From positions 204 to 64,203 of IMG/VR virus record IMGVR_UViG_3300010396_000038: a stretch of 64,000 bases of DNA. One strand, written 5' to 3'. Under the pieces are notes generated by a model that searched no databases, had not been told where the DNA came from, and saw nothing but the letters and a program-made list of their open reading frames with translations. The stretch's first letter is position 1, and each line of letters opens with the position of its first letter. Below, piece after piece: positions 8,522-64,000 of this stretch. This stretch comes from a virus. The translations under genes were made by a program, and so were the position numbers.

Positions 8522-8804
8522 CATCAAGATAGTCGACGACACCGACAGCGGCGACTGGCAGGCGATCTACGTGGACGGCGCGCTCCTCTACGAGGACCAC
8601 TACCTCGAGGCGGACCGGGTCCTGGACGTGCTCGGGGTCGGGTTCGAGTACGTCCGCGCCCTCACGGACGACTCGGGCCACTTCCCGAAGAGGTTCGCCG
8701 ACGTGACGACGGAGAGGGAGTCGAGGCGGCGCGAGCTCCTGGAGGAGGCGGAGCGCCTGCGCGAGCAGGCGGAGATCCTCGAGGCGGAGGCGGCGGGTGT
8801 CTAG
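8514..8804 (+). CDS. hypothetical protein (96 aa)
   Basis: High GC3; acidic C-terminal coiled-coil-like segment. Confidence 0.45.
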   Translation: MRDIKIVDDTDSGDWQAIYVDGALLYEDHYLEADRVLDVLGVGFEYVRALTDDSGHFPKRFADVTTERESRRRELLEEAERLREQAEILEAEAAGV

Positions 8805-13417: not shown

Positions 13418-13625
13418 CTCGACTGAGCGCGCGTACGGCCCGACCACGCCGGAGGACGTCGCGCGGCTGCGCAAGGTCTACCCCGTGGAGACCGCGGGGC
13501 GCACGGACGAGTACCTGGCACAGGTGATCGAGGGCGCCAAGGACTGGATCGGGCAGATCAAGTGGTCCTGGACGGTCGTGGCCAGCAGCCACCTACGGAC
13601 CGGGAGGTACAGCCAAAATGGCTAG
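13404..13625 (+). CDS. hypothetical protein (73 aa)
   Basis: GTG start overlapping the upstream gene; high GC3. Confidence 0.4.
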   Translation: MSVDSSTERAYGPTTPEDVARLRKVYPVETAGRTDEYLAQVIEGAKDWIGQIKWSWTVVASSHLRTGRYSQNG

Positions 13626-14661
13626 GGTCGACGTCGAGCGCCTGGACGCGCTCGTGGGCGAGGGCTGGCTCAAGGTCCAGCACCACCCAGAGTTCCCGCT
13701 CAGGATCTACAACTACACGGCGCAGACGCAGTTCAAGCGGCACTGGACGGACCTGACGGTCATGTGCCGCGGGCTGATCGTCACGGACGGCGGCCACGTG
13801 GTCGCGAGGCCGTTCCCCAAGTTCTTCAACCACGACGAGGTCGACGGCCTCCCGGACGAGCCGTTCACCGTGACGGAGAAGCTCGACGGCTCGCTCGGGA
13901 TCATGTTCCCGGGGCCGGACGAGGAGCTCCACGTCGCGTCGCGCGGCAGCTTCGTCTCGGAGCAGGCCAGGATGGGCTCGATCATGCTCGAGGAGTACCT
14001 CGACGAGCACGGCGAGCTCCGCTGGCGCGCCGGCACGACGACGCTGTTCGAGATCATCTACCCGGAGAACCGGATCGTGGTCGACTACGGGGGACGGCGG
14101 GAGCTGGTGTACCTGGCCACGATCGACAACGAGACGGGCGACGACGCCCCGCCCGAGCTGGAGACGCGGTGGGAGGGCGCCAGGGCCCGGACGTACGACT
14201 CGGACGACATCGAGGCGCTCTCGCGGCTGACGGCCCCGAACAGCGAGGGCTTCGTGGCGCGGTTCTCGTCGGGCCTGCGGGTCAAGATCAAGCTGGACGA
14301 GTACGTGCGGCTGCACAGGCTCCGCTCCCAGCTGTCCGCGAGGTACGTCTGGGACTGCCTCAGGAACGGCGAGGACGTCGTCGGCGTGATCGGGCACCTG
14401 CCCGACGAGGTCTACGGGGAGGTGATCAGGGTCCGCGACGAGATCCAGGCGGAGCACGACCTGCTAGTCAAGCGGTGCCGCGCGGTCTTCGAGGGCCGGC
14501 CGACGGCCGACCGAAAGGGGACGGCGCTGTACTTCATAGGGTCGAGGGCCTGCACGAGCGTGCTGTTCGCCATGCTCGACGGTAAGCCGTGGGAGGACCT
14601 GGCGTGGCGCCAGGTCGAGCCCGAGCACAAACCTATCTGGGAGGACGCGGAGTGGGACTGA
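13618..14661 (+). CDS. RNA ligase, T4 Rnl1 family (tRNA repair ligase)
   Basis: RIYNYTAQ..CRGLIV..ARPFPKFFNHDE..TEKLDGSLGIMF aligns with T4 Rnl1 RIFSYNYAS..CRGIMFE..SRPMEKFFNLNE..TKEDGSLVS, including the nucleotidyltransferase motif I lysine. Confidence 0.8.
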   Translation: MARVDVERLDALVGEGWLKVQHHPEFPLRIYNYTAQTQFKRHWTDLTVMCRGLIVTDGGHVVARPFPKFFNHDEVDGLPDEPFTVTEKLDGSLGIMFPGPDEELHVASRGSFVSEQARMGSIMLEEYLDEHGELRWRAGTTTLFEIIYPENRIVVDYGGRRELVYLATIDNETGDDAPPELETRWEGARARTYDSDDIEALSRLTAPNSEGFVARFSSGLRVKIKLDEYVRLHRLRSQLSARYVWDCLRNGEDVVGVIGHLPDEVYGEVIRVRDEIQAEHDLLVKRCRAVFEGRPTADRKGTALYFIGSRACTSVLFAMLDGKPWEDLAWRQVEPEHKPIWEDAEWD

Positions 14662-34371: not shown

Positions 34372-34445
34372 GCCCCGGTAGCTCAGCAGGACAGAGCGCA
34401 CGCCTCCTAAGCGTGAGGTCGCCGGTTCGAGTCCGGCCCGGGGCG
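34372..34445 (+). tRNA. tRNA-Arg (anticodon CCU)
   Basis: Acceptor GCCCCGG/CCGGGGC, D-arm GCTC-AGCAGGACA-GAGC, anticodon stem CACGC/GCGTG with loop CTCCTAA, T-arm GCCGG-TTCGAGT-CCGGC. Confidence 0.8.
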
Positions 34446-34491: not shown

Positions 34492-35415
34492 ATGCCAGAT
34501 CACCGCGACGTAGGAGTTGTGGTAGGTAGGTTCCAGGTCCCCGAGCTGCACGACGCGCACAGGAACCTGATCCAGAGGGTGTGCGACTCGCACGGGAAGG
34601 TGCTGATCTTCCTTGGGGTCTCGCCGCTCTGGTCCACGAAGCAGAACCCGCTGGACTTCGAGGCCAGGAAGCAGATGATCCTCGCGGCGTTCCCGCAGGT
34701 GAGCGTCCTGTACGTCAAGGACGTGAACGACGACGCCCTGTGGTCCAAGCGCCTGGACGCGATGATCTCGGACGTGGTCACGCCGGCGCAGTCCGTGCTG
34801 CTGTACGGCGGCCGGGACTCGTTCGTGAGTCGGTACTCCGGCCGCTACCCGACCACGGAGCTGGAGCAGGACACCTGGGTGTCCGGCTCGGTGATCCGCG
34901 ACCAGGTCAGGAGGAGCTCCGTCAAGGCGACGGCCGACTTCCGGGCCGGCGTCGTGTGGGGCGCCTTCTGCAGGTACCCGACCTGCTACCCGACGGTGGA
35001 CGTGGCGATCCTCAACGAGAGCCAGACCAAGATCCTGCTCGGGCGCAAGCCCTACGAGAAGAAGTTCCGCCTGATCGGTGGGTTCGCGGAGCCGGACTCC
35101 GTCTCGTACGAGCAGGACGCCAGGCGCGAGGTGGCCGAGGAGGTCGGCGTCGAGATCACGGACCCGGAGTACATCGGGAGCTTCAAGGTCGACGACTGGC
35201 GGTACCGCGGGGAGACGGACAAGATCAAGACGCTCCTGTTCCTCGCGCGGTACATGCACGGCGTGGTGCGGCCGGGGGACGACATCGTGGAGGCCAGGTG
35301 GTTCCCCGTCGACGAGGCGGACGTCGTGGAGACGCACCGGCGCCTCATGACCGAGGTCAGGTACCACACCGACCGAGCCCGCAAGGCGAAGGTCCAAGAT
35401 ACGGATAAGGACTAG
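34492..35415 (+). CDS. nadM: bifunctional NMN adenylyltransferase / Nudix hydrolase (NadM-Nudix type)
   Basis: N-terminal nucleotidyltransferase GRFQVPELHDAHRNLI (H.AH motif). C-terminal Nudix box REVAEEVGVE. Confidence 0.75.
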   Translation: MPDHRDVGVVVGRFQVPELHDAHRNLIQRVCDSHGKVLIFLGVSPLWSTKQNPLDFEARKQMILAAFPQVSVLYVKDVNDDALWSKRLDAMISDVVTPAQSVLLYGGRDSFVSRYSGRYPTTELEQDTWVSGSVIRDQVRRSSVKATADFRAGVVWGAFCRYPTCYPTVDVAILNESQTKILLGRKPYEKKFRLIGGFAEPDSVSYEQDARREVAEEVGVEITDPEYIGSFKVDDWRYRGETDKIKTLLFLARYMHGVVRPGDDIVEARWFPVDEADVVETHRRLMTEVRYHTDRARKAKVQDTDKD

Positions 35416-35419
35416 GGAC

Positions 35420-36877
35420 ATGGACAACATCATCCTCGCCACGGACAGCTACAAGCTGACGCACTGGCGGCAGTACCCGCCCGGAACGCGGACGGTCTAC
35501 TCGTACCTCGAGAGCCGGGAGGGGGCGGAGTTCCCGGAGACGGTGTTCTTCGGGCTCCAGGCCGTCCTGAACCAGTACCTGCTCGACCCAGTCGAGCCGT
35601 GGATGCTGGTCGAGGCCGTCAACCTGGGCAGGGCGCACTTCGGGGCGGACCTGGTGAACGAGGCCGGCTGGCGGCGGGTCATCGGCGACCACGACGGGTA
35701 CCTGCCCCTCAGGATCCGGGCGGTGCCCGAGGGCACGCCCGTGCCCACGGGCAACGTGCTGATGACGGTCGAGAACACGGACCCGGAGCTACCGTGGCTG
35801 ACGAACGCCGTGGAGAGCCTGCTGACGCACGTCTGGTACCCGTCGACCGTGGCCACGCTGAGCCGCCAGGTCAAGAAGGACATCGCCCACTGGCTCGAGG
35901 CGACGACGGGCTCGACCGACGGCGCGGACCTGATGCTTCAGGACTTCGGGTACCGCGGGGCGGCGACGCACGACGCCGCGGCGATCGGCGGGGCCGCGCA
36001 CCTGGTCAACTTCCTGGGTTCGGACACGCTGCCGGCGATGCTGTTCGCCCAGGAGCACTACGGGGCGTCGTTCGACGGGCTGGCGTACTCCGTGCCGGCG
36101 ACCGAGCACTCGGTCATGACCGCGCGCGGCCGGGACGGCGAGGCGGACGTGGTCCGGCAGCTCCTGGACGCGTACCCGAGCGGGATCCTGTCGGTGGTCG
36201 CGGACAGCTACGACATCTACCGGTTCGTCGAGAAGTACGTGGGCGAGACGTTCAAGGCCCCGATCATGCAGCGAGACGGCACCTTCGTGGTGCGGCCCGA
36301 CTCGCTGACCAAGCACCACTGGACGCCGGAGACGCTCGTCCTGTGGATCGTCCAGAGCCTGGGCGGCAGTTTCGGGTACGAGACGACCCCGCAGGGGTAC
36401 AGGGTCCTGGATCCGCACGTGCGGGTCCTGTGGGGCGACGGGATCGACCGCGAGGGCGTCAGGGCGATCCTCTCGACGCTGGCGGGCGCCGGCTGGGCGG
36501 CCAACAACATGGTGTTCGGCATGGGCGGCGGCCTGCTGCAGAAAGTCAACCGGGACACGCAGCGGTTCGCGTTCAAGTGCTCCGCCATGGAGGACGCGGA
36601 CGGCTGGCGGGACGTCCAGAAGATGCCGCTCGACGCGAGCAAGGTCTCGAAGGCCGGCCGATTCCAGCTAAGCCGGTTCACGGACGAGCACGGCGACCCG
36701 CACTACGACACGCTGCCGCTCGGGACGAGGGTCGCCATGACTGCGGACATCAGGATCGGCCGGCACGGCGACGACCGCCGGAGCACCGAGTCCGACGTGC
36801 TCGAGGACGTCTTCCTGAACGGGGACCTCGAGCGGTACCAGAGGTTCGACGACGTCCGTCGTCGGGCGGCGCTCTGA
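35420..36877 (+). CDS. nadV: nicotinamide phosphoribosyltransferase (NAMPT/NadV)
   Basis: N-terminal NIILATDSYKLTHW signature; 485 aa. Confidence 0.85.
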   Translation: MDNIILATDSYKLTHWRQYPPGTRTVYSYLESREGAEFPETVFFGLQAVLNQYLLDPVEPWMLVEAVNLGRAHFGADLVNEAGWRRVIGDHDGYLPLRIRAVPEGTPVPTGNVLMTVENTDPELPWLTNAVESLLTHVWYPSTVATLSRQVKKDIAHWLEATTGSTDGADLMLQDFGYRGAATHDAAAIGGAAHLVNFLGSDTLPAMLFAQEHYGASFDGLAYSVPATEHSVMTARGRDGEADVVRQLLDAYPSGILSVVADSYDIYRFVEKYVGETFKAPIMQRDGTFVVRPDSLTKHHWTPETLVLWIVQSLGGSFGYETTPQGYRVLDPHVRVLWGDGIDREGVRAILSTLAGAGWAANNMVFGMGGGLLQKVNRDTQRFAFKCSAMEDADGWRDVQKMPLDASKVSKAGRFQLSRFTDEHGDPHYDTLPLGTRVAMTADIRIGRHGDDRRSTESDVLEDVFLNGDLERYQRFDDVRRRAAL

Positions 36878-45146: not shown

Positions 45147-45469
45147 GGTATGCTCCTTCGTGGGGTGGGGGTAGGCTGGCCCTCGAGTGGGAGGGACGGG
45201 CCCACAGTCGGCATCGGCACCTCGGTGTCGCTCCTGTGGACGTACCAGTTCCTGCGGGGGTCCCCCGGGAAGGGCTCGGCCACGGCCCCGCAGTGGCACT
45301 CGCAGTCGTCCTCGAGCACGTGCTCGCGGGGGTCGCCACGGAAGGACGCGTGCACGTCCCTCTTGGTGAGGTCGACCACCCAGTACTGATTCCCCAGCCT
45401 TTCGGCGAGGTTGCCGGAGTGGTCGGGGTCGATGTCCTTGAGCCAGTAGGCTGCGTTCTCGGTGTTCAC
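45143..45469 (-). CDS. small Cys/His-containing protein (108 aa; ..DDCECHCG..)
   Basis: GTG start with RBS GGGAGG. GTGA and TTGA overlaps with neighbours. High GC3. Confidence 0.4.
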   Translation of the reverse strand: MNTENAAYWLKDIDPDHSGNLAERLGNQYWVVDLTKRDVHASFRGDPREHVLEDDCECHCGAVAEPFPGDPRRNWYVHRSDTEVPMPTVGPSLPLEGQPTPTPRRSIP

Positions 45470-45900
45470 GGGACCTCCCAGAGCGACGACGTGCCGCCGT
45501 CGTTGGAGTCGAAGGTTATGGAGCTCCCGGACGAGACGAAGATCCCGGCCTGGAAGCTGTGCGTGCCGGGCGTGAGGAAGTCGGAGTACCACACGTACGT
45601 GAACCGCTCGTGGTACGACGCGTACGCGTAGTACATCTTGCCCCACGACACGCCGTGGACGATCTGGCTGTTGGTCTCGACCATCCCCTGCACGTTGGAG
45701 ATCCCGCTGCAGTAGGACGTGAACGAGGTCTGCCCCAGCGCGTACGCGCCGTTCGGGTTCTTGATCGTGATCGTGTGGTTGAACAGGTTGACGAAGAAGG
45801 CGGTGTACGTCCCGGACCAGCCGCCCCACGTGTTCTGGACGTCGTAGCCGAGCGGCCGCTCGCACGCCTGCAGCCCGCCGAGGATGATCTCGCTCGACAT
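45466..45900 (-). CDS. tail-region paralog A3 (144 aa)
   Basis: N-terminal MSSEIILGG..CE..LG..NTWGGWSGTY and C-terminal FLTPG.HS..GI.V..G..FD.NDGGT. Shared with 45900..46328 and 46325..46762. Confidence 0.5.
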   Translation of the reverse strand: MSSEIILGGLQACERPLGYDVQNTWGGWSGTYTAFFVNLFNHTITIKNPNGAYALGQTSFTSYCSGISNVQGMVETNSQIVHGVSWGKMYYAYASYHERFTYVWYSDFLTPGTHSFQAGIFVSSGSSITFDSNDGGTSSLWEVP

Positions 45901-46328
45901 CAGGGCCTCTCCAGCGAGATGAACGTCCCGCCGTCGTTCGCGTCGAACGTGACCGTCCCGCCGTTGACGTAGATCCCGACCAGTATGCTGTGCGAGCCCG
46001 GGGTGAGGAACGCGTACCAGTTGAACGACCACGGCGTGTGCTCGCTCGCGTTGTTGAAGAACTGCAGCCCCCAGACCGTGGGCCCGCCGCCGTCCACCTC
46101 GGTGGCGCCCTGGAAGGTCGTGCCCGGGACCCCCGTGTAGCACGTGAGGGTCGCGGCCCCGGAGACGTACGAGCCCGCTCCGTCGGACACCGTGAGCGAG
46201 ACGTTCGCCAGCGTGACGAACACCCCGGCGCCGTACGTCCCGCTCCAGCCGCCCCAGGTGTTGGCGCCGCCGAGGCCGAGGCCGTGCTCGCAGACCTGGG
46301 TGCCGCCGAGGATGATCTCCGAGGTCAC
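45900..46328 (-). CDS. tail-region paralog A2 (142 aa)
   Basis: As above; GTG start. Confidence 0.5.
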   Translation of the reverse strand: MTSEIILGGTQVCEHGLGLGGANTWGGWSGTYGAGVFVTLANVSLTVSDGAGSYVSGAATLTCYTGVPGTTFQGATEVDGGGPTVWGLQFFNNASEHTPWSFNWYAFLTPGSHSILVGIYVNGGTVTFDANDGGTFISLERP

Positions 46329-46762
46329 GCGATCTCCCAGCAGAACGAGTCCCCGGCCTGGTTGGCGGACTGGAAGTTGACCGTGCCCGCGGCCACCCAG
46401 ACCCCGATGCCGATCGTGTGCGCCACCGGCGTGAGGACGGGCGTGCTCCAGCTGAAGTCGAACTCGAACCACCTGGAGGTGCTGGTGTTGAAGTAGAAGA
46501 GCCCGTAGACCGTCTGGGTGCCGCCGTCGACGGTCACGCTCCCCTGCATCTCGGTTCCCGACCCGCCGCTGTTGTTGCAGGTGAACGTCGACCGCCCGAC
46601 GACCCGGCCCCCCGCCGGGTTCGTGACGGTGATGGTGTGCGAGAAGAGCCCCACCAGCTGCGCGGCGCTGAACGACCCGGCCCAGCCCGTGCCGGAGTCG
46701 TTACCGGTGAAGCCCGCCGGGTGGGTCGTGATCTGGGCGGTCCCCAGGATTATCTCGGGCAC
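46325..46762 (-). CDS. tail-region paralog A1 (145 aa)
   Basis: As above; GTG start 4 nt after the upstream stop. The rest of ORF 46325..48193 is off-frame overlap. Confidence 0.5.
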   Translation of the reverse strand: MPEIILGTAQITTHPAGFTGNDSGTGWAGSFSAAQLVGLFSHTITVTNPAGGRVVGRSTFTCNNSGGSGTEMQGSVTVDGGTQTVYGLFYFNTSTSRWFEFDFSWSTPVLTPVAHTIGIGVWVAAGTVNFQSANQAGDSFCWEIA

Positions 46763-53790: not shown

Positions 53791-55305
53791 CTAGGAGCCG
53801 GTGTTCTGCGACACGGTGGTCGTGGAGCTGGCCGGCACGGCCTGCGTGATCGGGACGCTGTTGATGACGATCTGGACCAGCTGCGCGAACGGCGACATGC
53901 GCACGTTCAGGATCGCGTTGAGCTGCCCCAGCTGCTCCGTCGCCGGGTTGTTGACCCCGACGCCCGTGTTGATCGAGTAGGCGGTCCCGTTCCCCGCGTT
54001 CCCGTACAGCGCGCCCACGGACCAGAACCCGTTGAGCATGTTGTCGAGGGCGCTCGCGAAGCTCACGATGTCCGACCCCTGGCCGTCCAGCTGGCTGAAC
54101 AGGTAGGGCTCCGCGACGATCTGGGCCGCGGCGGTGATGGCCATCCGCAGGCGGCAGTGGTTGAACTGCCAGTAGATGGCGTCGGAAGTGGGCAGGATCG
54201 AGGTGACGAACCCGAAGTTCTCGAAGTTCCCGAAGCGGGTCGCGAACGTGTTGATGCCGGCGCTGTTGAGCGTCGACACGTCGGTCGGGCTGTACGTCTC
54301 GGTGATGCCGGAGACCAGCGTGAAGGACCCGCTGCAGTACTGCAGGGGGTACGAGGCGCCGGCCGCGGCCTGGTTCGGGTTGCCGGTCGAGTCGACCCTC
54401 GCGCAGAGCGCCGCGATCACGGGGCTCGGCGGGATGGACCGGGTCGTGCCGGGGACCGTGCCGGGGGCGGACAGGTTGCCGGCCCAGAAGCCGATCGGGC
54501 CCGCGCCGGGCGAGTTGTAGGTCGAGCCGATGTCGCCGACCGCCGTGGCGGCGGAGATGCCGTCGTCCATGTCGCAGATGCCGACCCTGTTGGTCGCGGT
54601 GGCCGCGGCGCCGATGGCGGACCAGATGCCGGCCATCGTGGTGTTCGTGACGCCCGGCGCCCAGATCTGGCCCGGGCCGAGCGACGGCGGGAACGAGTTC
54701 AGCGCGGTCTGCCAGTTGGCGATCGTGGCGTGCGTCCTGTCGTCCGTGCCGCCCGACATGGACGCCGCGGACGCCGTCTTGGGCAGCGTCGCGTACGCCC
54801 CGAGCGGGTAGATGTTGACGTACGGGATGCTCGCCGCCCAGGCCTGGGCCGCGGCCTTCGAGGCCAGCGACGGGCTCGTCGCGAGCTGGTTCCCGAAGGT
54901 GTCGGTCAGGGAGATCGTGTAGGCGGCGCCCGTGTTGGTCACGGACACCTGGATGGCGTTGCCGTAGTTGCCGACGTACTCGGCGTTGACCAGCAGCGAC
55001 GCGCTGGAGTTGGCGTCCTGCAGGACGATCGACGCGGCGGACGCGGCGGGCCCTACGACGCGGGTGAAGTAGGCCGTCTGGCCGCCCTCGCGGAAGTACA
55101 CGTCGAGCGCGTCGTAGACCGTCGTGTTCGTGCCCGAGCGGGGGCCGACGGCCGCCGCGGCGCCGGCGAGGGACTGGATCGTGACCGGGGTCCCGGAGGG
55201 CCCCCAGTCGGACAGGCCGACGACGAACGAGTTCGCGGTGTTGTAGGGGTTGAGGGTGGCGGCTGGGGTCTCCGAGGAGGAGACGATAGTCCCAATCTGG
55301 CTCAT
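53791..55305 (-). CDS. major tail protein candidate (504 aa; could be sheath-like)
   Basis: Strong RBS AGGAGGA; sits immediately upstream of the chaperone genes. Confidence 0.45.
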   Translation of the reverse strand: MSQIGTIVSSSETPAATLNPYNTANSFVVGLSDWGPSGTPVTIQSLAGAAAAVGPRSGTNTTVYDALDVYFREGGQTAYFTRVVGPAASAASIVLQDANSSASLLVNAEYVGNYGNAIQVSVTNTGAAYTISLTDTFGNQLATSPSLASKAAAQAWAASIPYVNIYPLGAYATLPKTASAASMSGGTDDRTHATIANWQTALNSFPPSLGPGQIWAPGVTNTTMAGIWSAIGAAATATNRVGICDMDDGISAATAVGDIGSTYNSPGAGPIGFWAGNLSAPGTVPGTTRSIPPSPVIAALCARVDSTGNPNQAAAGASYPLQYCSGSFTLVSGITETYSPTDVSTLNSAGINTFATRFGNFENFGFVTSILPTSDAIYWQFNHCRLRMAITAAAQIVAEPYLFSQLDGQGSDIVSFASALDNMLNGFWSVGALYGNAGNGTAYSINTGVGVNNPATEQLGQLNAILNVRMSPFAQLVQIVINSVPITQAVPASSTTTVSQNTGS

Positions 55306-55677: not shown

Positions 55678-57243
55678 CTAGAGGACCACCCAGTTCCAGG
55701 ACGGCGCGGCAGAGTAGGTCAGCGTGATCGTCTTGCCGGAGGGCACGACCACGGTGCCCGACGTGACGCCCGTGGCGGTCCCGTCGACGGCGACCGCGGT
55801 CACGGTGCCCCCGCTGACGGTCACGGCGCAGTCGCGCCAGAACGGGTTGGTCAGCGCCACGGTGGTGGCGGGGACGGACGGGGCGGCGACGTGCCCACGC
55901 TCCTGGTAGAAGGCGGTGACCCGCGCGTTCCCGGCGCCGTTGACGAGCGGCACGCCGCCCGTGTTGTTGATGTTCCCGACCCAGATCACGCCGCTGAGGT
56001 AGTTGTCGGGGTCGTTGATGTCCCAGGTGCCGGTGACCTCGGTGTCCATGTGGGCGACGGTGAAGGGGAACGTCGGCACCGTCGACGAGGACTCCAGGAT
56101 CGAGGCGTCGATCGCCGAGATGCACGCCTCCGCCGACAGGTACTCGATGTGCGCGCCGTGCGTCAGGGAGTTGGAGCCCAGCTGCGGCGCGGGCATGACA
56201 CCGGACTTGCAGTAGATCATCCGTAGCGACTTCGCGTTGAAGTGGTCGGGGGCGGAGACGCCCACCGGCCACGCGTAGATCGTGAGGGTCCCGACCTCCT
56301 GGTAGTCGTTGTTGTTGATCCCGGGCATGTAGACGCCGACGCCCTGGCCGTTGAGGCCGCCCGTCTGGGAGTCCTGGTTGGCGGGCACGTCGAAGGTGTA
56401 GAGCCCGACGCCGTCCAGGCTGGCGCAGGCCACGCAGCGGAGGTCGAAGCCGTTCTGGCTCGGGTTGGTCGCGGTCACCAGCGACATGTTCCTCACCGCG
56501 AGGTGCATGTTCGACCAGACGTTGTTGCTCTGGTGCCAGCCGGCCGGGTACCCGAAGGTGCCGAAGGCGGTGGTGTTCGGCCCGGCGATCACCGACGGGA
56601 AGCCGTAGCTGGAGTCGTTGGCCTGCGCGTAGAGTGTGGAGAACAGGCACGCCCCGGGGAGGTGGGGGGTCGTCTGGGCCCAGTGCGTGGGCGCGGCGCA
56701 GTCGGACGGGCCCGAGATCTCCAGCACGAACTTGTCGTTCGGCACCGGCGCGACGATCGGCAGCGGGATCTGGGCGTTGCCGTAGTACATGACGTGTTCC
56801 TTGGTGGTCGCCCCCGCGATCATGTAGATGCCCTCGCTGAGGGCCACCCTGCCGGCGCTGAGGCCGGCCGCCTGGGCGGACTGCACGACGTTCGCGACGG
56901 CGGCCTTGACCGCCGCGGTGTCGTCGGTCCCGTAGACGGCGTTCGCGCTCGCGGTCGCGTTGATGGTGGCCCCGTCCCGGGCAGTGATCGCGACGTGGTG
57001 AGCGTCGGTGAACGTGACGATGTTTGCGAACACGGTCGTCGGGGAGCCGTTGAGCGTGTTCCCGGCGTTGATCGCGACGACCTTGCCGACGTCGCCGGCG
57101 GTGAAGGTGGTCAGCGCGGAGGACAGCACCGGGCCGGCCGTGATCGTCGCGTCGGTGATGAGCTTACCGTCGCGCTTGGCGCCGTGGGCCTCGGGCGTGT
57201 CGACGACGGCCAGGCCGCCCTGCTGAAGGATCTCGGGGCTCAT
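55678..57243 (-). CDS. pectate-lyase-fold (beta-helix) tailspike/depolymerase-like protein, paralog 3
   Basis: N-terminal DTPEAHGAKRDGKLITDATI..GTDDTAAVKAAV fits the Pectate_lyase_3 motif. Conserved C-terminus APSVPATTVALTNPFWRD..PSWNWVVL. The real start is the ATGA-overlap ATG at 57243, not the 952-aa ORF. Confidence 0.6.
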   Translation of the reverse strand: MSPEILQQGGLAVVDTPEAHGAKRDGKLITDATITAGPVLSSALTTFTAGDVGKVVAINAGNTLNGSPTTVFANIVTFTDAHHVAITARDGATINATASANAVYGTDDTAAVKAAVANVVQSAQAAGLSAGRVALSEGIYMIAGATTKEHVMYYGNAQIPLPIVAPVPNDKFVLEISGPSDCAAPTHWAQTTPHLPGACLFSTLYAQANDSSYGFPSVIAGPNTTAFGTFGYPAGWHQSNNVWSNMHLAVRNMSLVTATNPSQNGFDLRCVACASLDGVGLYTFDVPANQDSQTGGLNGQGVGVYMPGINNNDYQEVGTLTIYAWPVGVSAPDHFNAKSLRMIYCKSGVMPAPQLGSNSLTHGAHIEYLSAEACISAIDASILESSSTVPTFPFTVAHMDTEVTGTWDINDPDNYLSGVIWVGNINNTGGVPLVNGAGNARVTAFYQERGHVAAPSVPATTVALTNPFWRDCAVTVSGGTVTAVAVDGTATGVTSGTVVVPSGKTITLTYSAAPSWNWVVL

Positions 57244-58574
57244 AGCAGAATCCAGCTCCAGCTCGGAGTTTCGATGTATGTCAGCGTGATCGCCTTCCCG
57301 GACGGCACGACGTAGGTGCCGGGCACCACCGACATGCTCTCGCCGTCGACCTGGACGCCGGTCAGCCCGGAGCCGCCTACCGTAACGGCCGCATCCCGCC
57401 AGAACGGGTTGGTGAGGGCCGCGGTCGTCGCCGGGACGGCCGGGGCGGCGACCGCGCCGGGCGCCTGGGCCCCGTTGGCCCACTTGGCGCGCGCGGAGCC
57501 GTTGACGATCGGGGGCAGCCCGGGTCCAGTCTTGCCGTCGGACGCCGCGCCCGCGCCCGAGCCGTTGTTGCGGCGCACGCCCAGGCAGCCGCCGGTCAGG
57601 TAGTTGTTGGCGTCGTTGACGTGGTACCGGGTCGATGCTCCGGAGCCCGTGCCATCCTCGATGTCCCAGGTGCCGATGTCGAGCTGGCACATCTCGGACC
57701 CTGACACGACAGTCCCCGCCGTGGACAGGTGGTCCTGGCAGGCCTCGGTGGACAGGTAGTCGATGCGGGCCACGTCGAACTGGCCTCCCTGGAACCAGAC
57801 GCCCGACCCGCAGTAGACGATCCCCGCGCGGCTGACGTGCGTGTGCTCGCCCGGGATCAGGCCGTTGGCGTACCCCTCGATCGACAGCGTGCCGACCTCG
57901 CAGTTGTCGTTGTTGCCGACCTGCGGCATGCGCAGGGCGACGCCGCCGGCGCTGGGGAAGGTGGTGAAGCTGCCCGGGACGATGTTGCCGCTGAAGGCCA
58001 TCGACGGGATGTTGCACTCGGCGATGCACTGCAGGTCCACGCCGACGTGGAGCGGATCGGTGTAGTTGCTCACCACCGACAGCCCGTCGATGACGACGAG
58101 CATGTTGGAGAACCCACCGTCGGTGCTGCCGAGCTGCTGTACCGTCGGGCCGCCGATGACCGACGCGGCCCCCAGGCCGGAGTCGAAGGAGGCGTTGAGG
58201 TTGGTGAGGATCGTCGCCCCGGCCTTCTGCACGCTGGTCTGCTGCCAGTGGGGGAACGGGGCGGCCGCGGAGGGGCAGCGCAGCACCAGCACGAACTTCT
58301 GCGCGGTGGAGGCGACCTGCGGGAGGGGGATCTGCGCGCGCCCGAGCTGGCTGGTGTCGAGCGCGCCGCTGACGAAATAGACGCCGGCGCTGAGCCACAC
58401 CTCGGCGTAGTTGGTGCCGTTGGCCTGCGCGACCGAGACGGCGTTGGAGATCGCGGCCTTGATCGCCGCGGTGTCGTCCGTGGTCCCGTCGCGCTTGGCC
58501 CCGTGGTTCTCGGGGAGGTCGACGGTGCACGGCCACGCGTCGGCCAGCTCGGCGGTCGCGATGTTGAGCGTCAT
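57240..58574 (-). CDS. pectate-lyase-fold tailspike/depolymerase-like protein, paralog 2
   Basis: VDLPENHGAKRDGTTDDTAAIKAAI, and the same conserved C-terminal domain (APAVPATTAALTNPFWRD..PSWSWILL). Confidence 0.6.
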   Translation of the reverse strand: MTLNIATAELADAWPCTVDLPENHGAKRDGTTDDTAAIKAAISNAVSVAQANGTNYAEVWLSAGVYFVSGALDTSQLGRAQIPLPQVASTAQKFVLVLRCPSAAAPFPHWQQTSVQKAGATILTNLNASFDSGLGAASVIGGPTVQQLGSTDGGFSNMLVVIDGLSVVSNYTDPLHVGVDLQCIAECNIPSMAFSGNIVPGSFTTFPSAGGVALRMPQVGNNDNCEVGTLSIEGYANGLIPGEHTHVSRAGIVYCGSGVWFQGGQFDVARIDYLSTEACQDHLSTAGTVVSGSEMCQLDIGTWDIEDGTGSGASTRYHVNDANNYLTGGCLGVRRNNGSGAGAASDGKTGPGLPPIVNGSARAKWANGAQAPGAVAAPAVPATTAALTNPFWRDAAVTVGGSGLTGVQVDGESMSVVPGTYVVPSGKAITLTYIETPSWSWILL

Positions 58575-60475
58575 AGTATCACCCACTCCCAGGTCAGGGT
58601 TCCAGTATAGGTGACCGTCACGCTCTTACCCGTCGGCACCGCGAACGGCTGCCCCGGCGGCCACGCGCCCCCGTCGACCGAGACGGCTGTCACAGACCCG
58701 CCGGTGACGGCGACGAAGGCGTCGCGGTAGACGGGCGCCGAGGGCGAGCCGGACGCGGGGACCGACGGGGGCGAGGCCATCGCCCCCGGGCCGTACGCGC
58801 TGTCGAAGATCTTCAGGTACTTACAGCCGATGATGTGCGCCGAGTCGATCGGTGTGGCGCCGGCGCGGTGGACGAACACCTGGCCGGTCAGCGTGTTCGA
58901 GACGTCGGTGATGAGGGCGTGACCGGTGTTCTCCTCGTCGAGCATGTTGACGTTGATGCAGCCGCCGTCGTCGCTGTAGAGGCAGTTGTAGCAGGCCTCG
59001 ACGCTCGCGTAGTTGACGACCGCCCCGTGGTTCAGGGGCTGGAACTGGGAGACGACGATCCCGTCGGCGCAGTAGATGGCGCGGATGCTGTTCGCGACCG
59101 TGTGCTCGCCCAGCACCACGCCGAGGCACACCGACTCGCACGAGTACTGGCCGATCTCGTTGTGGTCGTTGTTGTTGTTGCCCGGCATCTGGAGCCCGAA
59201 CGACCACGAGCTGCTCTGGTAGCCGCCGCCAGCCGACTCGAGACTCGGGACCGTGAAGCACATCACCCCGAGGCTCTTGACGTTGGCCTCCGCGACGCCG
59301 ATCAGGTCGACCCCGGCGACCGCCGGGTCGCGCGGGAGCATGACCCCCAGGCCGTCGATCACGACCATCATGTTCGACCACAGGTTCGCGTTCGCCGGGC
59401 CGTACCCACCGAACACGTTGGGGCCGCCGACCACGCACTCGGCGCCCGCCGAGTTCGTCCCCGAGTTGTAGGTCGAGCACAGGAACGCGCCGGCCGCCTG
59501 CGGGCTGGTCTGCTGCCAGTGCGGCAGGGCGGAGCCCTCCGACACGCCCCTCAGCACGCACACCATCTTCATCGGGCCCACCGCGTGGACGGGCAGCGTG
59601 ACCTGCGCGTTCCCGCTCCGGCCCGTTGACGGGGCGCCGGAGACCATGTAGATGCCCCTCGAGAACCACACCTCGTAGTAGTAGGACCCGTTCGCGACCG
59701 CGGCCGCGTCGGCCGAGTCGATCGCCGCCTGGATCGCGGCCGTGTCGTCGGTCCCGTACACCGCGAACGTCGACGCGAAGTCCGCAGTCGTGCTGGCCAG
59801 GACGACGTTGTGCGAGTCCGTGACCGACGAGACGGTCGTGATCAGCGTGGTGCCGGTCGACGGGTTGCAGACCATGACGTGCTTGCCCACGTCCCCCGAC
59901 ACGAACGCGGCGGTCGAGCACGTGAGCGTGTTCGACGAGTGCGTGATCGTCACCCCCGTCAGCACCGTGCCGTCGCGCTTCGCGCCGTGGTTCTCGGGCA
60001 GGTCGACCGCGTACGGCATCGCCGCCGCGAGCTGCGCGGTCGTCGGGGCGCCGCCGGCCGCGGCCCGGTTCTCCCACTTGCTCGCGGCCGTCACGTACGT
60101 GAGGACCTGCCCGTCGGACGGGCTCGTCTCCGAGACGTCCGTCAGGCCGGCCAGCGTCGTCGAGCCGCCGGTGATCTGCCCGAAGGTGGCCGCGTCGGTG
60201 GAGGCGGTCCCCGGCGCCAGGCCGGTGATCTTGTGGCCGTTCATCGGCACGTCGGCCGCGGTCGGGTTCGCGATCGCGATCGCCGACAGGTCGGAGCTGA
60301 CCGCGCCGCCGCCCTCGTAGGGCAGGGCCGTCCAGGCCGTGCCGCCGTTGCCGATCTTGAACTTCCCGGTGTCTACCTCGTAGCCGGGCTCCCCGACGGA
60401 GAGGATCGGGTTGCTGGTGGCCCACTGCGCCGCGGTGCCGCGACGGAACTGGATCGTGGCGAGCTCGGTGGTCAA
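58571..60475 (-). CDS. pectate-lyase-fold tailspike/depolymerase-like protein, paralog 1, with HylP-type N-terminal virion-attachment domain
   Basis: N-terminal IQFRRGTAAQWATSNPILSVGEPGYEVDTGKFKIGNGGTAWTALPY resembles phage hyaluronidase HylP LRVQFKRMKAAEWARSDVILLESEIGFETDTGFARAGDG. Then VDLPENHGAKRDG..DDTAAIQAAI and the shared C-terminal domain. Confidence 0.65.
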   Translation of the reverse strand: MTTELATIQFRRGTAAQWATSNPILSVGEPGYEVDTGKFKIGNGGTAWTALPYEGGGAVSSDLSAIAIANPTAADVPMNGHKITGLAPGTASTDAATFGQITGGSTTLAGLTDVSETSPSDGQVLTYVTAASKWENRAAAGGAPTTAQLAAAMPYAVDLPENHGAKRDGTVLTGVTITHSSNTLTCSTAAFVSGDVGKHVMVCNPSTGTTLITTVSSVTDSHNVVLASTTADFASTFAVYGTDDTAAIQAAIDSADAAAVANGSYYYEVWFSRGIYMVSGAPSTGRSGNAQVTLPVHAVGPMKMVCVLRGVSEGSALPHWQQTSPQAAGAFLCSTYNSGTNSAGAECVVGGPNVFGGYGPANANLWSNMMVVIDGLGVMLPRDPAVAGVDLIGVAEANVKSLGVMCFTVPSLESAGGGYQSSSWSFGLQMPGNNNNDHNEIGQYSCESVCLGVVLGEHTVANSIRAIYCADGIVVSQFQPLNHGAVVNYASVEACYNCLYSDDGGCINVNMLDEENTGHALITDVSNTLTGQVFVHRAGATPIDSAHIIGCKYLKIFDSAYGPGAMASPPSVPASGSPSAPVYRDAFVAVTGGSVTAVSVDGGAWPPGQPFAVPTGKSVTVTYTGTLTWEWVIL

Positions 60476-61284
60476 GGCGTCCCTCCGTCAATGTCTGTAT
60501 CAGGCTGCGCGGGCGGCGTGCCGCCGTCGTACGAGTCGACGACGCCGCCGGCCGCGGGGCCGCCGTCCAGGCCGGTCACCGCCGGCGCCGACAGGTCGTC
60601 GGCGATCGGGAAGGCGTCGACCTCGATGCCGACCGCGTCCACGACCGTGAGGTCGCCCGGCGCCGCGTACGGGTTCTGAGCCGGCGTCCGCGGGCCGGCG
60701 GCCGCGGTCACCACGTTGGCGATCATCGCGTTCACGACGAACTGCGCGCGGCAGACGCGGCGCTCGTCCGGGAACGGGAAGACCGTCCTGGGGTACTCGA
60801 CCATCCAGGTGTCGTAGCTCACGGACGAGCCGTCGGGCCAGGCGCCGAGGCCGCCGTGCTGGAGCATGGCGGCGCAGGCGGCCATCCCGAGCATGTCGGC
60901 GTACCCGCGGGCGGAGTCCTCCTCGAGGGGGCCGAGCGACGGCATCGTGGCGCCCGAGTACTGGACGTTGACGCCGACCGCGAGCTCGAACTCCTGGACG
61001 TAGGTGCCAGAGGCGTCGACCCTCATCGGCGCGCCGAACGGCTGCGCGTTCACGATGAAGGTCGGCGTCCAGGACGCCTCCCAGGTGTTGAAGTCGAGGC
61101 CGCCCCGGTAGGACAGGCTCGGGTCCGGCGGCATCGGGATCGTGCGCGGCTCGAGGCCTCCCTGCCGCTCGATCTCGCCGACGTACGTCGGGACCCAGGT
61201 CTCTAGGAACGAGACGATCGCGATCTCGACGTCGCGTCGGGTGACCAGCCGCCCGAAGAGGGCGCCGGGGTCGGTGGTCGGCAT
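60472..61284 (-). CDS. hypothetical structural protein (270 aa)
   Basis: ATGA overlap with the downstream gene; first gene after tRNA-Glu. Confidence 0.45.
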   Translation of the reverse strand: MPTTDPGALFGRLVTRRDVEIAIVSFLETWVPTYVGEIERQGGLEPRTIPMPPDPSLSYRGGLDFNTWEASWTPTFIVNAQPFGAPMRVDASGTYVQEFELAVGVNVQYSGATMPSLGPLEEDSARGYADMLGMAACAAMLQHGGLGAWPDGSSVSYDTWMVEYPRTVFPFPDERRVCRAQFVVNAMIANVVTAAAGPRTPAQNPYAAPGDLTVVDAVGIEVDAFPIADDLSAPAVTGLDGGPAAGGVVDSYDGGTPPAQPDTDIDGGTP

Positions 61285-61302
61285 TCGCCTCCCTTAGGTG
61301 AG

Positions 61303-61375
61303 CACCCCGTGCCGGATTCGAACCGACGACCTCCTGGCTGAGAACCAGGCGTCCTCGCCGCTAGACCAACGGGGC
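61303..61375 (-). tRNA. tRNA-Glu (anticodon CUC)
   Basis: Reverse complement gives acceptor GCCCCGT/ACGGGGT, D-region GGTCTAGCGGCGAGGAC typical of tRNA-Glu, anticodon stem CCTGG/CCAGG with loop TTCTCAG, T-arm GTCGG-TTCGAAT-CCGGC. Confidence 0.75.
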
Positions 61376-61384
61376 GTGGATGCT

Positions 61385-62032
61385 TTAGAAGCCCGTGCAG
61401 CGCCGCATGAGCAGCGCGAAGGCGGGCTGGCCGCGGCGGCCGTTGTGCTCGACCCAGCCGTAACGGAAGCCGTCCGCGGCGTAGGTGAGCTTCCAGACCG
61501 TCTCGTAGTCCCGGCAGAACCAGGACTCGACGATGTCGGCCGTGAGGTTGTGCTCGTGCGCCTCGTGCGGGTGCGTGAGCGCGTTGTTCTCGGCGCAGAG
61601 GATCGCGACGTAGCCGCCGGGCTTCATGGCGTCCTGGATGCGCATGGCGGCCGCGAGGGGGCTCTGGACGTGGTCCAGGCTGTTGGTCGCGATCGCGAGG
61701 TCGAACTTCTCGAGCGGCTCCTCCCAGACGAACTGCTCGGCGTACTGGCCGACGTGGTCTGGGCAGGGCGCGATCTTGCGGTACTCCGCGGACAGCGGGT
61801 CGATCACGATCCTGCTCTTGAAGGGCAGGATGTCCGATAGCGGCAGCGGCCCGCCGCCGATCTCCAGCACGCACATGTTCGACGTGTCGAGCTTGTCCAG
61901 GAGCAGCGCCTTGGCCATGCCGTAGTGCCGCATCCGCTCGCGGCGGAGCTTCTCGGCCTGGCGCTCGGGGTCGTCCATGACCCAGGTGGCGGCCTCGGCC
62001 TCGAGCGTCCTGCGGAGCCTGTCCCGGCTCAC
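61385..62032 (-). CDS. class I SAM-dependent methyltransferase
   Basis: Motif I VLEIGGGPLP; GTGA overlap start. The N-terminal part of ORF 61385..62212 is off-frame. Confidence 0.6.
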   Translation of the reverse strand: MSRDRLRRTLEAEAATWVMDDPERQAEKLRRERMRHYGMAKALLLDKLDTSNMCVLEIGGGPLPLSDILPFKSRIVIDPLSAEYRKIAPCPDHVGQYAEQFVWEEPLEKFDLAIATNSLDHVQSPLAAAMRIQDAMKPGGYVAILCAENNALTHPHEAHEHNLTADIVESWFCRDYETVWKLTYAADGFRYGWVEHNGRRGQPAFALLMRRCTGF

Positions 62033-62391
62033 GACGCTAGGAGTACTGGGATGTTCATGAATGGGTCCAGGTGGTAGGCCAGCGACACGCGGTGCGAGCC
62101 GTCGGCGATGATCAGGCCCTCGTCGTGGGTCACGAGCAGCGGCGGGTGCAGCCTCTTGCCGGACAGGGCCTTCAGGAGCCCCCGCTTGACGCCGGGGTCG
62201 TCCCAACCCCACGGCACGCCGCCCGACGCGCGGACGATGTCGTTCGCCCGGCGCTCGACGACGCCGTTCCGGCGGAGCGCCCGGATCCTCGCGACGGCCT
62301 GCTTCTCGTCCCAGAACAGGGTCAGGTAGTTCAGCGCCGCGTCGAAGTTCGACTGGTTCACGCGGTTCGTGAAGATCTGCAGCTCGCTCAA
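62029..62391 (-). CDS. hypothetical protein (120 aa)
   Basis: TTGA overlap start; high GC3 only in this sub-segment of ORF 62029..62916. Confidence 0.4.
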   Translation of the reverse strand: MSELQIFTNRVNQSNFDAALNYLTLFWDEKQAVARIRALRRNGVVERRANDIVRASGGVPWGWDDPGVKRGLLKALSGKRLHPPLLVTHDEGLIIADGSHRVSLAYHLDPFMNIPVLLAS

Positions 62392-63443
62392 GAGTACCGC
62401 CCCGCGATCTCCTCGTAGATGCTGACGAGACTGCGGGACATCCGCCAACCGGGGTGGTCGCCCTCGAACTGCCTGTTCGAGCTGACCCACCAGCGGTGGT
62501 CGCCTGTCCGGGGCTCGGGGTCGTACTTGGGCCGCCAGCCCTCGTTCCCCGTCAGGCGCGTGAAGGCGCCGATGGCCTCCACCATGGAGCAGGCGTTGTC
62601 CCGCCCGCCGCCGATGTTGTAGACCTTGTGGCCGTGCGGCCCGTCGTGGTACGCCAGGAACGCCGACACCAGGTCCTGCGCGTGAATGTTGCACCGGACC
62701 TGGAGGCCGTCGTAGCCGAAGATCTTGTAGGGCAGGTCGCGCGCCACGCACTTCCCGAGGTACGCCAGGAACCCGTGGAGCTCCACGCCCGCGTGGTCGG
62801 CGCCCGTGAGGCAACCGGGGCGGAAGACCCCGACCTTCATCCCGAAGTACCTGCCGTACTCCTGCGCCACCAGGTCGGCCGAGGCCTTGCTCGCCCCGAA
62901 CAGGGAGTGCAGGCACTGGTCGATCGACATGTCCGGCGTGATCCCGTCGTAGAACCTGTGCGACTGGACCAGGTCCAGCCTGTCCGTGCCGCGGGGGCGC
63001 CTGAGCGGCAGCCTGTTCGGGTTGTCGCCGTAGACCTTGCTCGTAGAGCAGTGGATCACGGTCGCCGCCGGCGCGTGCAGGCGGGTCGCCTCGAGCACGT
63101 TCAGCGTCCCGACCGCGTTCACCCCGAAGTCGGTCATCGGCTCGCGGGCGGCCCAGTCGTGCGACGGCTGCGCCGCGCAGTGCACCACGATCTCGGGGGT
63201 GATCTCCTCCATCAGGGAGGTCATGCGCTCCCCGTCCCGGATGTCGAACCTGCGCCAGTGGAACGCGGCCCGCAGCTCCTCGAGGAGGTCGTACGTGGTC
63301 GCCTGCGTGCTGCCGTCGGGCCCGAAGAAGTACTTCCGCATGTCGTTGTCCACGCCCCAGACGTGGAACCCCCGGGACGCCAGCTGCCGGCAGGCCTCCG
63401 AGCCGATCAGGCCGGCCGAGCCCGTGACGACGGCACGCCTCAA
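62388..63443 (-). CDS. NAD-dependent epimerase/dehydratase (extended SDR)
   Basis: VVTGSAGLIGS Rossmann motif and YGASKASAD (YxxxK). Confidence 0.75.
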   Translation of the reverse strand: MRRAVVTGSAGLIGSEACRQLASRGFHVWGVDNDMRKYFFGPDGSTQATTYDLLEELRAAFHWRRFDIRDGERMTSLMEEITPEIVVHCAAQPSHDWAAREPMTDFGVNAVGTLNVLEATRLHAPAATVIHCSTSKVYGDNPNRLPLRRPRGTDRLDLVQSHRFYDGITPDMSIDQCLHSLFGASKASADLVAQEYGRYFGMKVGVFRPGCLTGADHAGVELHGFLAYLGKCVARDLPYKIFGYDGLQVRCNIHAQDLVSAFLAYHDGPHGHKVYNIGGGRDNACSMVEAIGAFTRLTGNEGWRPKYDPEPRTGDHRWWVSSNRQFEGDHPGWRMSRSLVSIYEEIAGRYS

Positions 63444-63829
63444 CGAACCAGGTCCAGGTCGCCGTCCAGCACTCGGTCGACGTGCGCGGTCGTCCTGCCG
63501 GTGCGGTGGTCCGTGACCCGCCGGTCGACCACGTGGTAGGTCCGGATGCGCTCGGTCGAGCCCGCCGGGGCAGGGCCTACCTCGTCGCCGGCGACCTGCA
63601 CCCCGAGCCAGCGCCTGAACGCAACGCTCTCGGCCATCCGCCGCCACGCGATCTTCGCGTTCTGGCCCTGCTTGCGCTCGTCGCGGCTCTCGCCGCGCGC
63701 GCCCGACGGGGGGTGGATGAACCGCACGCCCGTGTCGCGCTTGTTCTGGTTCTGGCCGCCCTTGCCGCCGCAGCGGAAGGTCTGCCTGACGCAGTCGTCG
63801 GCGGTCACCCGGAGCAGTAGCTCGCGCAT
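63440..63829 (-). CDS. GGQ-domain mini release factor / peptidyl-tRNA hydrolase (RF-1 domain only)
   Basis: FRCGGKGGQNQNKRDTGVRFIHPPSG..ESRDERKQGQNAKIAWRRM..ERIRTYHVVDRRVTDHRTG..LDGDLD aligns with class I RF domain 3 ([63 protein letters not shown]). No codon-recognition (PCRF) domains. Confidence 0.7.
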   Translation of the reverse strand: MRELLLRVTADDCVRQTFRCGGKGGQNQNKRDTGVRFIHPPSGARGESRDERKQGQNAKIAWRRMAESVAFRRWLGVQVAGDEVGPAPAGSTERIRTYHVVDRRVTDHRTGRTTAHVDRVLDGDLDLVR

Positions 63830-63838
63830 GCTGCCCCT

Positions 63839-64000
63839 ACTGGCTCTTGTACCAGGGCGTCGCCGCGCCGACGTCGTCGGCCGACGGGAAGTTCGTCCCG
63901 TCGAAGCGCCAGGCCCGGTCGTCGAGGTACAGCTCCGCGTTCGGCTTCTCCACGGGGATGGTGATGCACCCCATGGCCCGCGGCGAGACGCCGTTCTCGA
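63839..64000 (-). CDS. hypothetical protein, C-terminal fragment (gene continues beyond the window end)
   Basis: High-GC3 frame ending ..DDVGAATPWYKSQ* with a TAG at 63839..63841. Confidence 0.4.

Follow-up and report, generated by a model that had tools for sequence, protein, structure and literature searches.

A phage-encoded C-terminal fragment of a release factor as a candidate codon-independent rescue factor for stalled ribosomes

The stretch of viral DNA analyzed here, referred to as the window, comprises 64,000 nucleotides (nt) (positions 204 to 64,203 of the IMG/VR record IMGVR_UViG_3300010396_000038) and includes a minus-strand gene, located at 63440-63829, that encodes a protein of 129 amino acids (aa). 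This protein corresponds to the C-terminal third of the release factor (RF) RF1: domain III, which carries the GGQ motif, is followed by the switch loop and by ~33 residues from the beginning of domain IV. We propose, with a probability of about 0.5, that the gene specifies a catalytically competent, codon-independent peptidyl-tRNA hydrolase that rescues stalled ribosomes in support of phage translation. The original prediction, made by reading the nucleotide sequence without database searches, had described a GGQ domain of RF1/RF2 standing alone, and this description was borne out by a match to the Pfam RF-1 domain, by the GGQ motif at residues 24-26, and by the collinearity of the protein with RF1. 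The gene is defined as follows.

63440-63829 (stop codon 63440-63442 included), minus strand: stand-alone release-factor fragment gene, 129 aa, recognized by its open reading frame (ORF), G+C content at third codon positions (GC3), frame plot, Pfam and PHROG

The composition and the borders of the ORF confirmed that it is a real, coding gene. Its GC3 is 0.94, compared with 0.52 and 0.69 for other frames over the same DNA, and the genes nearby have values of 0.96-0.99. In a sliding frame plot the coding frame changes exactly at 63837/63829 and again at about 63445. The ATG start codon, the first after the in-frame stop, comes directly behind a GGGG and 7 nt past the TAG that closes the upstream gene, and the TGA shares 4 nt with the TTG start of the downstream epimerase gene. 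A protein identical to the product of the window gene (P0001) is present in public metagenomes, and in one of the public contigs, L001, an independent gene call placed the borders at the same positions.

The Pfam RF-1 profile (PF00472) matched residues 7-109 over profile positions 6-116 of 116 with an E-value of 2.1e-15 and 57 bits (cut-off, 35). Residues 6-128 align to positions 209-334 of the NCBIfam RF1 model, which has 347 positions, and the protein is collinear with residues 191-315 of Thermotoga maritima RF1 and 221-340 of Escherichia coli RF1, with a length difference of just 3 residues. All the signatures of domain III were found, among them the 'R..H.PSG' and 'ERSQ.N' motifs, and the GGQ motif is intact and invariant across 120 homologues. 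The codon-recognition domains had been predicted to be missing, and indeed there was no Pfam match to the PCRF domain in the 129-aa protein, which begins at domain III. The parts of the protein and their coordinates are listed below.

63752-63760, minus strand: GGQ catalytic motif, residues 24-26 (GGC GGC CAG), read directly from the sequence
63581-63811, minus strand: RF domain III, residues 7-83, with a three-stranded sheet, the GGQ loop and the long helix alpha7 (residues 54-83), assigned from the AlphaFold2 model, the RF1 alignment and Foldseek
63545-63580, minus strand: flexible loop equivalent to the RF switch loop, residues 84-95, of low predicted local distance difference test (pLDDT) score (block mean, 57), between alpha7 and the hairpin
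63443-63544, minus strand: RF domain IV remnant, residues 96-129, consisting of the hairpin RTYHVVDRRVTDHRT followed by the LDGDLD helix, assigned from identity to RF1 and from conservation

The AlphaFold2 model, built from 120 homologues, had a mean pLDDT of 88. Its core is a sheet of three strands with the GGQ loop; residues 54-83 form a long helix, residues 84-95 a loop of low confidence, residues 96-99 and 104-107 the two strands of a beta-hairpin, and residues 117-121 a short helix. When the model was compared with the PDB using Foldseek, the first 47 matches were RF1, RF2 or the mitochondrial RF1 homologues mtRF1 and mtRF1a, with ~130 aligned columns, and they were followed by PrfH and C12orf65 (2rsm, rank 49), which matched in the GGQ domain only. 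The original prediction had taken the protein to be domain III plus an IRTY..RVTDHR helix. The assignment of domain III was right, but the IRTY..RVTDHR segment is predicted by the model and the RF1 alignment to be a domain IV beta-hairpin that lies past the switch loop; residues 95-111 read IRTYHVVDRRVTDHRTG. The switch loop of E. coli RF1 corresponds to residues 291-307 (Svidritskiy and Korostelev, bioRxiv 10.1101/226837), and residues 84-95 of the window protein were considered its equivalent because they align to E. coli RF1 at about those positions. The protein keeps a switch-loop-type loop as long as that of RF1, together with ~33 residues from the start of domain IV; the last ~20 residues and domain II are absent.

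Proteins of this kind are already annotated and widespread in phages. Residues 2-84 match profile positions 21-103 of the 136 in PHROG 3122, "RF-1 domain peptide chain release factor" (5.6e-32, 112 bits), and there was no alignment past residue 84 to the C-terminal region typical of that profile (positions 104-136). A tblastn search identified 249 phage records, 206 of them from Mycobacterium phages (Bixzunavirus, or cluster C, and Omegavirus), at about 60-62% identity over residues 2-84; in the phage ScottMcG the family gene, gp204, is located between the genes for DNA polymerase III alpha and RecA. An alignment splits the family in two, subfamily A, which includes the window protein and keeps the pattern R.Y......V.DHRT....L.G, and subfamily B, of the cluster C type, with another C-terminus. 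The profiles of both subfamilies aligned by hhalign with 64% identity and an E-value of 7e-60, but just to residue ~82. The GGQ motif is likewise invariant in subfamily A. The GGQ core and the short stand-alone form are common to the window protein and the PHROG 3122/cluster C type, represented by ScottMcG gp204, other Bixzunavirus proteins and the Omegavirus WXIN protein. They differ beyond the core: in the cluster C type the helix is longer and there is a mini-hairpin, 'PENL.VE...G.W', whereas the window protein has the RF1-type switch loop, the RTY..V.DHRT hairpin and the LDGDLD helix. An AlphaFold2 model of one subfamily B member has the same GGQ domain followed by the longer helix and the mini-hairpin, so that, as modeled, both subfamilies follow one design, that is, a GGQ domain, a long helix and a small distal hairpin. 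What is new is that subfamily A has an RF-type C-terminus and that a known targeting element is missing.

Subfamily A is the rarer subtype. The family has 316 loci in IMG/VR, and subfamily A accounted for 2 of the best 80; among the best 150 representatives at 50% clustering it accounted for about 32. BFVD also contains a 164-aa "PrfB" of the same extent, from an uncultured phage. No close full-length match was found in a cultured-phage collection of 50,697 records, where the listed records covering at least 80% of the query were just ~33-36% identical. A scan of 185,579 species genomes was done with two peptide patterns, and among the matches listed the best ones checked were mostly full-length RF1 or RF2 at 35-44% identity, which is the reason to consider the family essentially viral. 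Isolated short forms among those listed were found in Cohnella (L092) and in an Obscuribacterales genome (L129, 230 aa). A cellular or prophage origin of the window gene was rejected on the basis of the same matches, absence from cells being unproven. The L129 sequence, from a Candidatus Obscuribacterales metagenome-assembled genome, is a stop-to-stop frame of 230 codons around 5001-5372 with a subfamily-A-like end (IRTYNFLESTVTDHNTG...) and about 106 extra residues upstream, possibly a PrfH-like intermediate architecture in a bacterium. Another variant, found in P0038 and P0113 (locus L171, 6001-6480), has a GGQ core of the phage type, but its C-terminus (YVLDGERLIKDPTTG...LDGDLDDF) resembles that of RF2 and not that of RF1, and its tail is longer, an architecture that hints at repeated exchange with cellular release factors.

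The identity to T. maritima RF1 is 50% in the domain IV remnant, 35% in the GGQ core and 17% in helix alpha7. In 34 subfamily A proteins Y98, D107 and G123 are invariant, and R96, V105, H108, R109, T110 and L121 are at least 90% conserved. The high identity and the invariant positions indicate that the domain IV remnant is under selection and is not decaying. These observations bear on whether the gene could be a 3' fragment left by a full-length release-factor gene, an explanation in keeping with the confinement of the alignment to the C-terminal third of RF1/RF2. Several observations go against it. The gene upstream is in another frame, stops 7 nt before the ATG, and encodes a HAD/GmhB-like protein with no match to PCRF; the GC3 of 0.94 is in line with the genes alongside; and conserved positions are spread along the whole 129-aa protein. 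Homologues are short as well. A sequence search found 1163 of them, and the 120 best were 88-162 aa long, while, among 1.84 billion representatives searched without a word index, 483 reached E <= 1e-10, and nearly all of the best 150 had lengths of 71-200 aa. Derivation from a longer release-factor pseudogene, the finding that the original prediction had named as fatal to it, was refuted by the unrelated upstream gene, the short homologues, the GC3 and the conservation throughout, and we regard it as practically discarded.

Comparison with known systems places the window protein apart from each of them. Compared with bacterial RF1 and RF2 it is missing domain I, the PCRF domain II that carries the PxT/SPF codon reader, and the final ~20 residues, and for this reason it cannot read stop codons or present the RF3-interacting domain. 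Its scores with the RF1 and RF2 equivalog models were 73 and 68 bits (cut-offs, 400 and 370). It is like ArfB (YaeJ) and ICT1 in being a stand-alone GGQ domain of similar size (129 versus 140 aa), and by analogy a codon-independent hydrolysis chemistry such as that of ArfB may be attributed to it. Unlike these proteins, it has neither the flexible linker nor the basic C-terminal helix for the mRNA channel. In ArfB, a basic tail at the C-terminus folds into a helix inside the empty mRNA channel (PMC8012679). The absence of such a basic tail had been anticipated, and the last 29 residues of the window protein have a net charge of 0. The last 40 residues of E. coli ArfB carry a charge of about +13. 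The ArfB equivalog model NF006718 matched residues 7-37 only, which is the GGQ loop, with 19.4 bits (cut-off, 100), and ArfB was absent from the top 50 Foldseek matches. The option of an unusual ArfB variant, which the original prediction raised for the case of host DNA, must then be abandoned. The protein is also less unusual than had been supposed, as it belongs to the annotated PHROG 3122 family. PrfH (RFH) is also a truncated release factor with a GGQ motif, but it is about 200 aa long with a domain II-like module, and the window gene has no adjoining RtcB gene. The PrfH model TIGR03072 matched residues 9-68 only, with 39.4 bits (cut-off, 166.65). Among the profiles that the original prediction considered, therefore, RF-1 gave a firm match, while ArfB and PrfH were far below their cut-offs. 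PrfH is thought to be active in conflict-related rescue with RtcB as partner (PMC6514570, PMC9304027). C12orf65/mtRF-R is likewise a small GGQ protein with no codon reader, and its structural match to the window protein was the GGQ domain alone (2rsm). It is a eukaryotic organellar protein with another C-terminal extension and no RF-type domain IV remnant. C12orf65/mtRF-R works on split large ribosomal subunits with MTRES1.

The intact motifs and the established knowledge of the domain led us to predict that the window protein would carry out GGQ-dependent hydrolysis in the peptidyl-transferase center. Ribosome binding, the substrate state and the benefit to the phage are, like the hydrolysis, inferred. 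The protein would enter a ribosomal A site that remains vacant long enough, with the GGQ loop at the peptidyl-transferase center and helix alpha7 across the intersubunit space. The switch loop and the hairpin would dock near the decoding center (h44 A1492/A1493 and H69 A1913), the site occupied by the same RF1 elements; in RF1, the switch loop with the hairpin contacts A1492/A1493 and H69 (bioRxiv 10.1101/226837). In the models, both subfamilies have a small module on the distal end of alpha7, a position that would be at the decoding center if the pose were that of an RF. The nascent chain would then be freed with no stop codon being read. Since the protein has no mRNA-channel probe of the ArfB, SmpB or ArfA type, action on ribosomes stalled on intact mRNA is conceivable, and an example of a substrate would be a hungry sense codon after host cleavage or depletion of a tRNA. 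Stalls on intact mRNA that follow the cleavage or inactivation of tRNAs by the host are poorly handled by transfer-messenger RNA (tmRNA), ArfA and ArfB. The 129-aa protein may thus be one of the tools that maintain phage translation, along with phage tRNAs, tmRNA, PTH2 and tRNA repair enzymes. A more ambitious version of this proposal, which we consider possible but doubtful, is that subfamily A represents a new class of codon-independent release factors, anchored at the decoding center, with no probing of the mRNA channel, and releasing at sense codons on intact mRNA, that acts with the tRNA arrays in phage counter-defense.

The genomic context of the family is compatible with this role. Among 80 viral loci, tRNA genes were found near the family gene within 6 kb in 37 and within 1.5 kb in 29, as raw counts. 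Clustering at 90% identity produced 64 clusters on viral contigs, of which 25 have a tRNA at no more than 6 kb and 18 at no more than 1.5 kb, while in 11 the gene has tRNAs to either side and in 3 there is a tmRNA; about 28-39% of the distinct family members on viral contigs are then within or beside tRNA arrays. Two subfamily A proteins, P0003 and P0016 (66% and 58% identical to the window protein), are encoded inside arrays of 28-29 tRNAs together with a phage tmRNA and a PTH2 gene. Another member, P0029, is within a 15-tRNA array, and P0010 adjoins a 1443-aa CCA-adding/HD protein; further subfamily A members were found among small genes without assigned function. The PTH2 genes are the following.

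L004, 2317-2787: archaeal/eukaryotic-type PTH2, adjoining the phage tmRNA
L170, 2691-3158: archaeal/eukaryotic-type PTH2, adjoining the phage tmRNA

The tmRNAs of these loci (L004, 1196-1568; L170, 1284-1662), located in the tRNA array of the GGQ gene, encode unusually long tag peptides ending in ...NVSIAYAA. In the tRNA array of a related phage (L008, 5508-5587), a tRNA with the anticodon UCA, which reads UGA and was called as selenocysteine tRNA (SeC) by ARAGORN, lies ~400 nt upstream of the GGQ gene, possibly a suppressor tRNA beside a codon-blind release factor. One class of tRNA arrays in mycobacteria has an RF-1-domain gene as its core gene, for which a rescue role was suggested (Morgado and Vicente, PMC5966550). 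Phages are not mentioned in a survey of release factors (PMC6514570), and neither GGQ nor release-factor proteins encoded by phages are discussed in a review of jumbo phages (PMC7824862). The original prediction was that the protein should hydrolyse peptidyl-tRNA on stalled ribosomes and that in a phage it could counter host cleavage of tRNA or mRNA, and the context makes this putative activity more plausible.

Several points weigh against a rescue function. About 60% of the family members have no tRNA within 6 kb, and the tRNA association is given as counts without a proper random-gene baseline. In the window itself, the gene is part of a sugar-modification operon and is not among translation genes. 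No conserved protein neighbor emerged when the ORFs within 3 kb were clustered in 86 loci; the largest real cluster comprised 8 related loci. An ArfB that lacks its 10 C-terminal residues no longer binds ribosomes (PMC8012679); therefore, a GGQ domain would not be expected to be functional without a targeting element. Domain II, on which the domain IV remnant normally relies, is absent here, and a hydrolase without targeting could be toxic. Finally, no biochemical or genetic study of any family member was found in the literature searched.

The lack of a recognizable targeting element is the point from which the alternative functions depart. To our knowledge, every characterized stand-alone or recruited GGQ rescue factor (ArfB/ICT1, ArfA-RF2, BrfA-RF2, PrfH) uses a known ribosome-state sensor, and because none of these sensors is present in the phage family its targeting is a directly testable question. 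The protein could act away from the translating 70S ribosome, either on peptidyl-tRNA of split 50S subunits, in the manner of ribosome-associated quality control and of mtRF-R/C12orf65, or on free, dropped-off peptidyl-tRNA, as Pth does. With no mRNA-channel tail and no codon reader, nothing known would select a 70S state, and C12orf65 is among the structural matches to the GGQ domain (rank 49). Nevertheless, subfamily A has retained and conserved two elements, the switch loop and the hairpin of domain IV, which in release factors function at the decoding center (30S), and the phages that encode P0003 and P0016 also have PTH2, so that a second hydrolase of free peptidyl-tRNA would be redundant. 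We also know of no GGQ domain that is active without the ribosomal peptidyl-transferase center, and consider activity off the 70S ribosome unlikely. The missing sensor could instead be a separate molecule, the GGQ protein being the catalytic half of a two-part rescue system in which a small phage or host protein recognizes the state of the ribosome and recruits it. RF1 or RF2 are recruited in this way by ArfA, BrfA and ArfT. The domain IV remnant normally packs on domain II, so that its exposed strands could pair with a partner, and small ORFs without an assigned function often abut the gene, such as those of 79 aa in L006, 109 aa in ScottMcG (gp203) and 54 aa in WXIN. The neighbors in the window, however, are sugar-modification enzymes, and across the 86 loci no protein neighbor was common beyond close relatives (largest real cluster, 8), so a conserved protein partner was rejected and a two-part system seems rather unlikely. 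The top ORF clusters in that analysis were antisense shadow ORFs of the family gene itself.

The protein might also manipulate translation, through premature release or a block of the A site on host ribosomes that results in shut-off, or through competition with host release factors or tmRNA-SmpB. Without a specificity domain any slow ribosome is in principle a possible target, and the genomic position of the gene is variable, often among early or accessory small genes. On the other hand, phage messages share the same ribosomes and indiscriminate release would harm the phage, the invariant catalytic Gln argues against a pure blocker, and the occurrence beside tRNA arrays and tmRNA speaks for a role in sustaining translation; manipulation is in our view quite improbable. 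Rescue of stalled ribosomes by a codon-independent hydrolase thus continues to be the explanation we prefer. If it is correct and the substrates are on intact mRNA, the protein would be a missing piece of the translation upkeep of large phages under tRNA- or mRNA-directed host immunity, and its travel with tRNA arrays, tmRNA and PTH2 would be explained. If family members turned out to be inactive or toxic, a widespread "release factor" annotation in the databases would need correction. The family is easily testable.

The genes that surround the release-factor fragment gene in the window are listed below.

63837-64000, minus strand: 3' end of a HAD/GmhB-like sugar phosphatase gene (128 aa in full), PHROG 1238 (4e-11) and PHROG 23773 (2.5e-20)
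62388-63443, minus strand: NAD-dependent sugar epimerase/dehydratase gene with a TTG start, supported by Pfam Epimerase (8e-34), the frame plot and the L001 gene call
62029-62391, minus strand: gene for a 120-aa protein, with a 4-nt overlap with each neighbor, GC3 0.96
61385-62032, minus strand: class I S-adenosylmethionine-dependent methyltransferase gene, Pfam Methyltransf_23 (3.8e-11)
61302-61375, minus strand: tRNA-Glu (anticodon CUC), found by ARAGORN and Rfam (tRNA, 58.5 bits), 9 nt past the methyltransferase stop

The complete upstream phosphatase gene was read at L001 9607-9993; it had no Pfam match and no PCRF or other release-factor domain. Downstream of the release-factor fragment gene, successive genes overlap. 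Searches of Pfam, PHROG and PADLOC produced no match for the 120-aa protein. PADLOC found no defense-system match for the release-factor fragment gene or three of its downstream neighbors, and no promoter or terminator consensus was found on the minus strand between 60000 and 64000. An epimerase and a methyltransferase had been named as the neighbors, with no translation genes. The immediate neighbors are indeed unrelated to translation, but the phosphatase and the 120-aa gene had been omitted, and tRNA-Glu(CUC), 2 kb downstream, closes the same gene string. Genes for glycosyltransferases, methyltransferases and the epimerase make up a run that has the release-factor fragment gene at its end. 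The part upstream of the GGQ gene, L001 3608-9595 (minus strand; about 0.4-6.4 kb past the window end at 64000), contains at least six genes of the glycosyltransferase or methyltransferase type, and their continuation into the epimerase, methyltransferase and tail-fiber genes looks like a virion or cell-surface glycosylation module.

The phage setting assumed for the gene was confirmed by the contents of the window, which include genes for a tail sheath (53791-55305), a baseplate protein and three tail-fiber paralogues, as well as a family A DNA polymerase, a helicase, a dCMP deaminase and a thymidylate synthase. The G+C content is ~70% across the whole window. A megablast search of 61000-64000 against the 50,697 phage records produced no match, and the tail sheath has just 27% identity to its counterparts in Arthrobacter and Gordonia myoviruses; the window belongs to a novel high-GC myovirus without a close cultured relative. 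ARAGORN and Rfam found only 3 tRNAs, with no tmRNA or other structured RNAs, and tblastn found no PTH2 homologue in the window, which is about half of a ~128-kb genome. Other features that concern RNA are the following.

8797-9495, plus strand: Thg1-like 3'-5' nucleotidyltransferase, PF04446 (9e-29)
13618-14661, plus strand: T4 Rnl1-type RNA ligase, PF09511 (3e-18)
7281-8087, plus strand: calcineurin-like metallophosphoesterase
34372-34445: tRNA-Arg(CCU), just upstream of a nicotinamide phosphoribosyltransferase/NUDIX pair

The first three genes form a tRNA-repair-like set that fits the theme of translation repair, and they are located ~50 kb away from the GGQ gene. The genes that follow tRNA-Arg(CCU), 34519-35415 and 35420-36877 (both plus strand), place a nicotinamide phosphoribosyltransferase (PHROG 448, 4e-141) beside a NUDIX protein, the latter with a weak, below-cut-off match of the cytidylyltransferase-like type; such pairs for NAD+ salvage have been proposed to counteract host defenses that deplete NAD. 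A protein with a 5-hydroxymethyldeoxyuridine (5-hmdU) DNA kinase helical domain (9465-10409, plus strand; PF18723, 1.6e-31) and a uracil-DNA glycosylase (UDG)-superfamily protein nearby at 8084-8521 suggest thymidine hypermodification of the phage DNA. The tail-fiber-like paralogues are in tandem at 55678-57243, 57240-58586 and 58571-60475 (minus strand) and have in common DLPENHGAKRDG and a C-terminal 'PSW.W..L' motif; one of their homologues has a Pect-lyase_RHGA_epim domain. Another set of tandem paralogues, small and with an N-terminal 'SEIILGG.Q' motif, is found at 45466-45900, 45900-46328 and 46325-46762 (minus strand).

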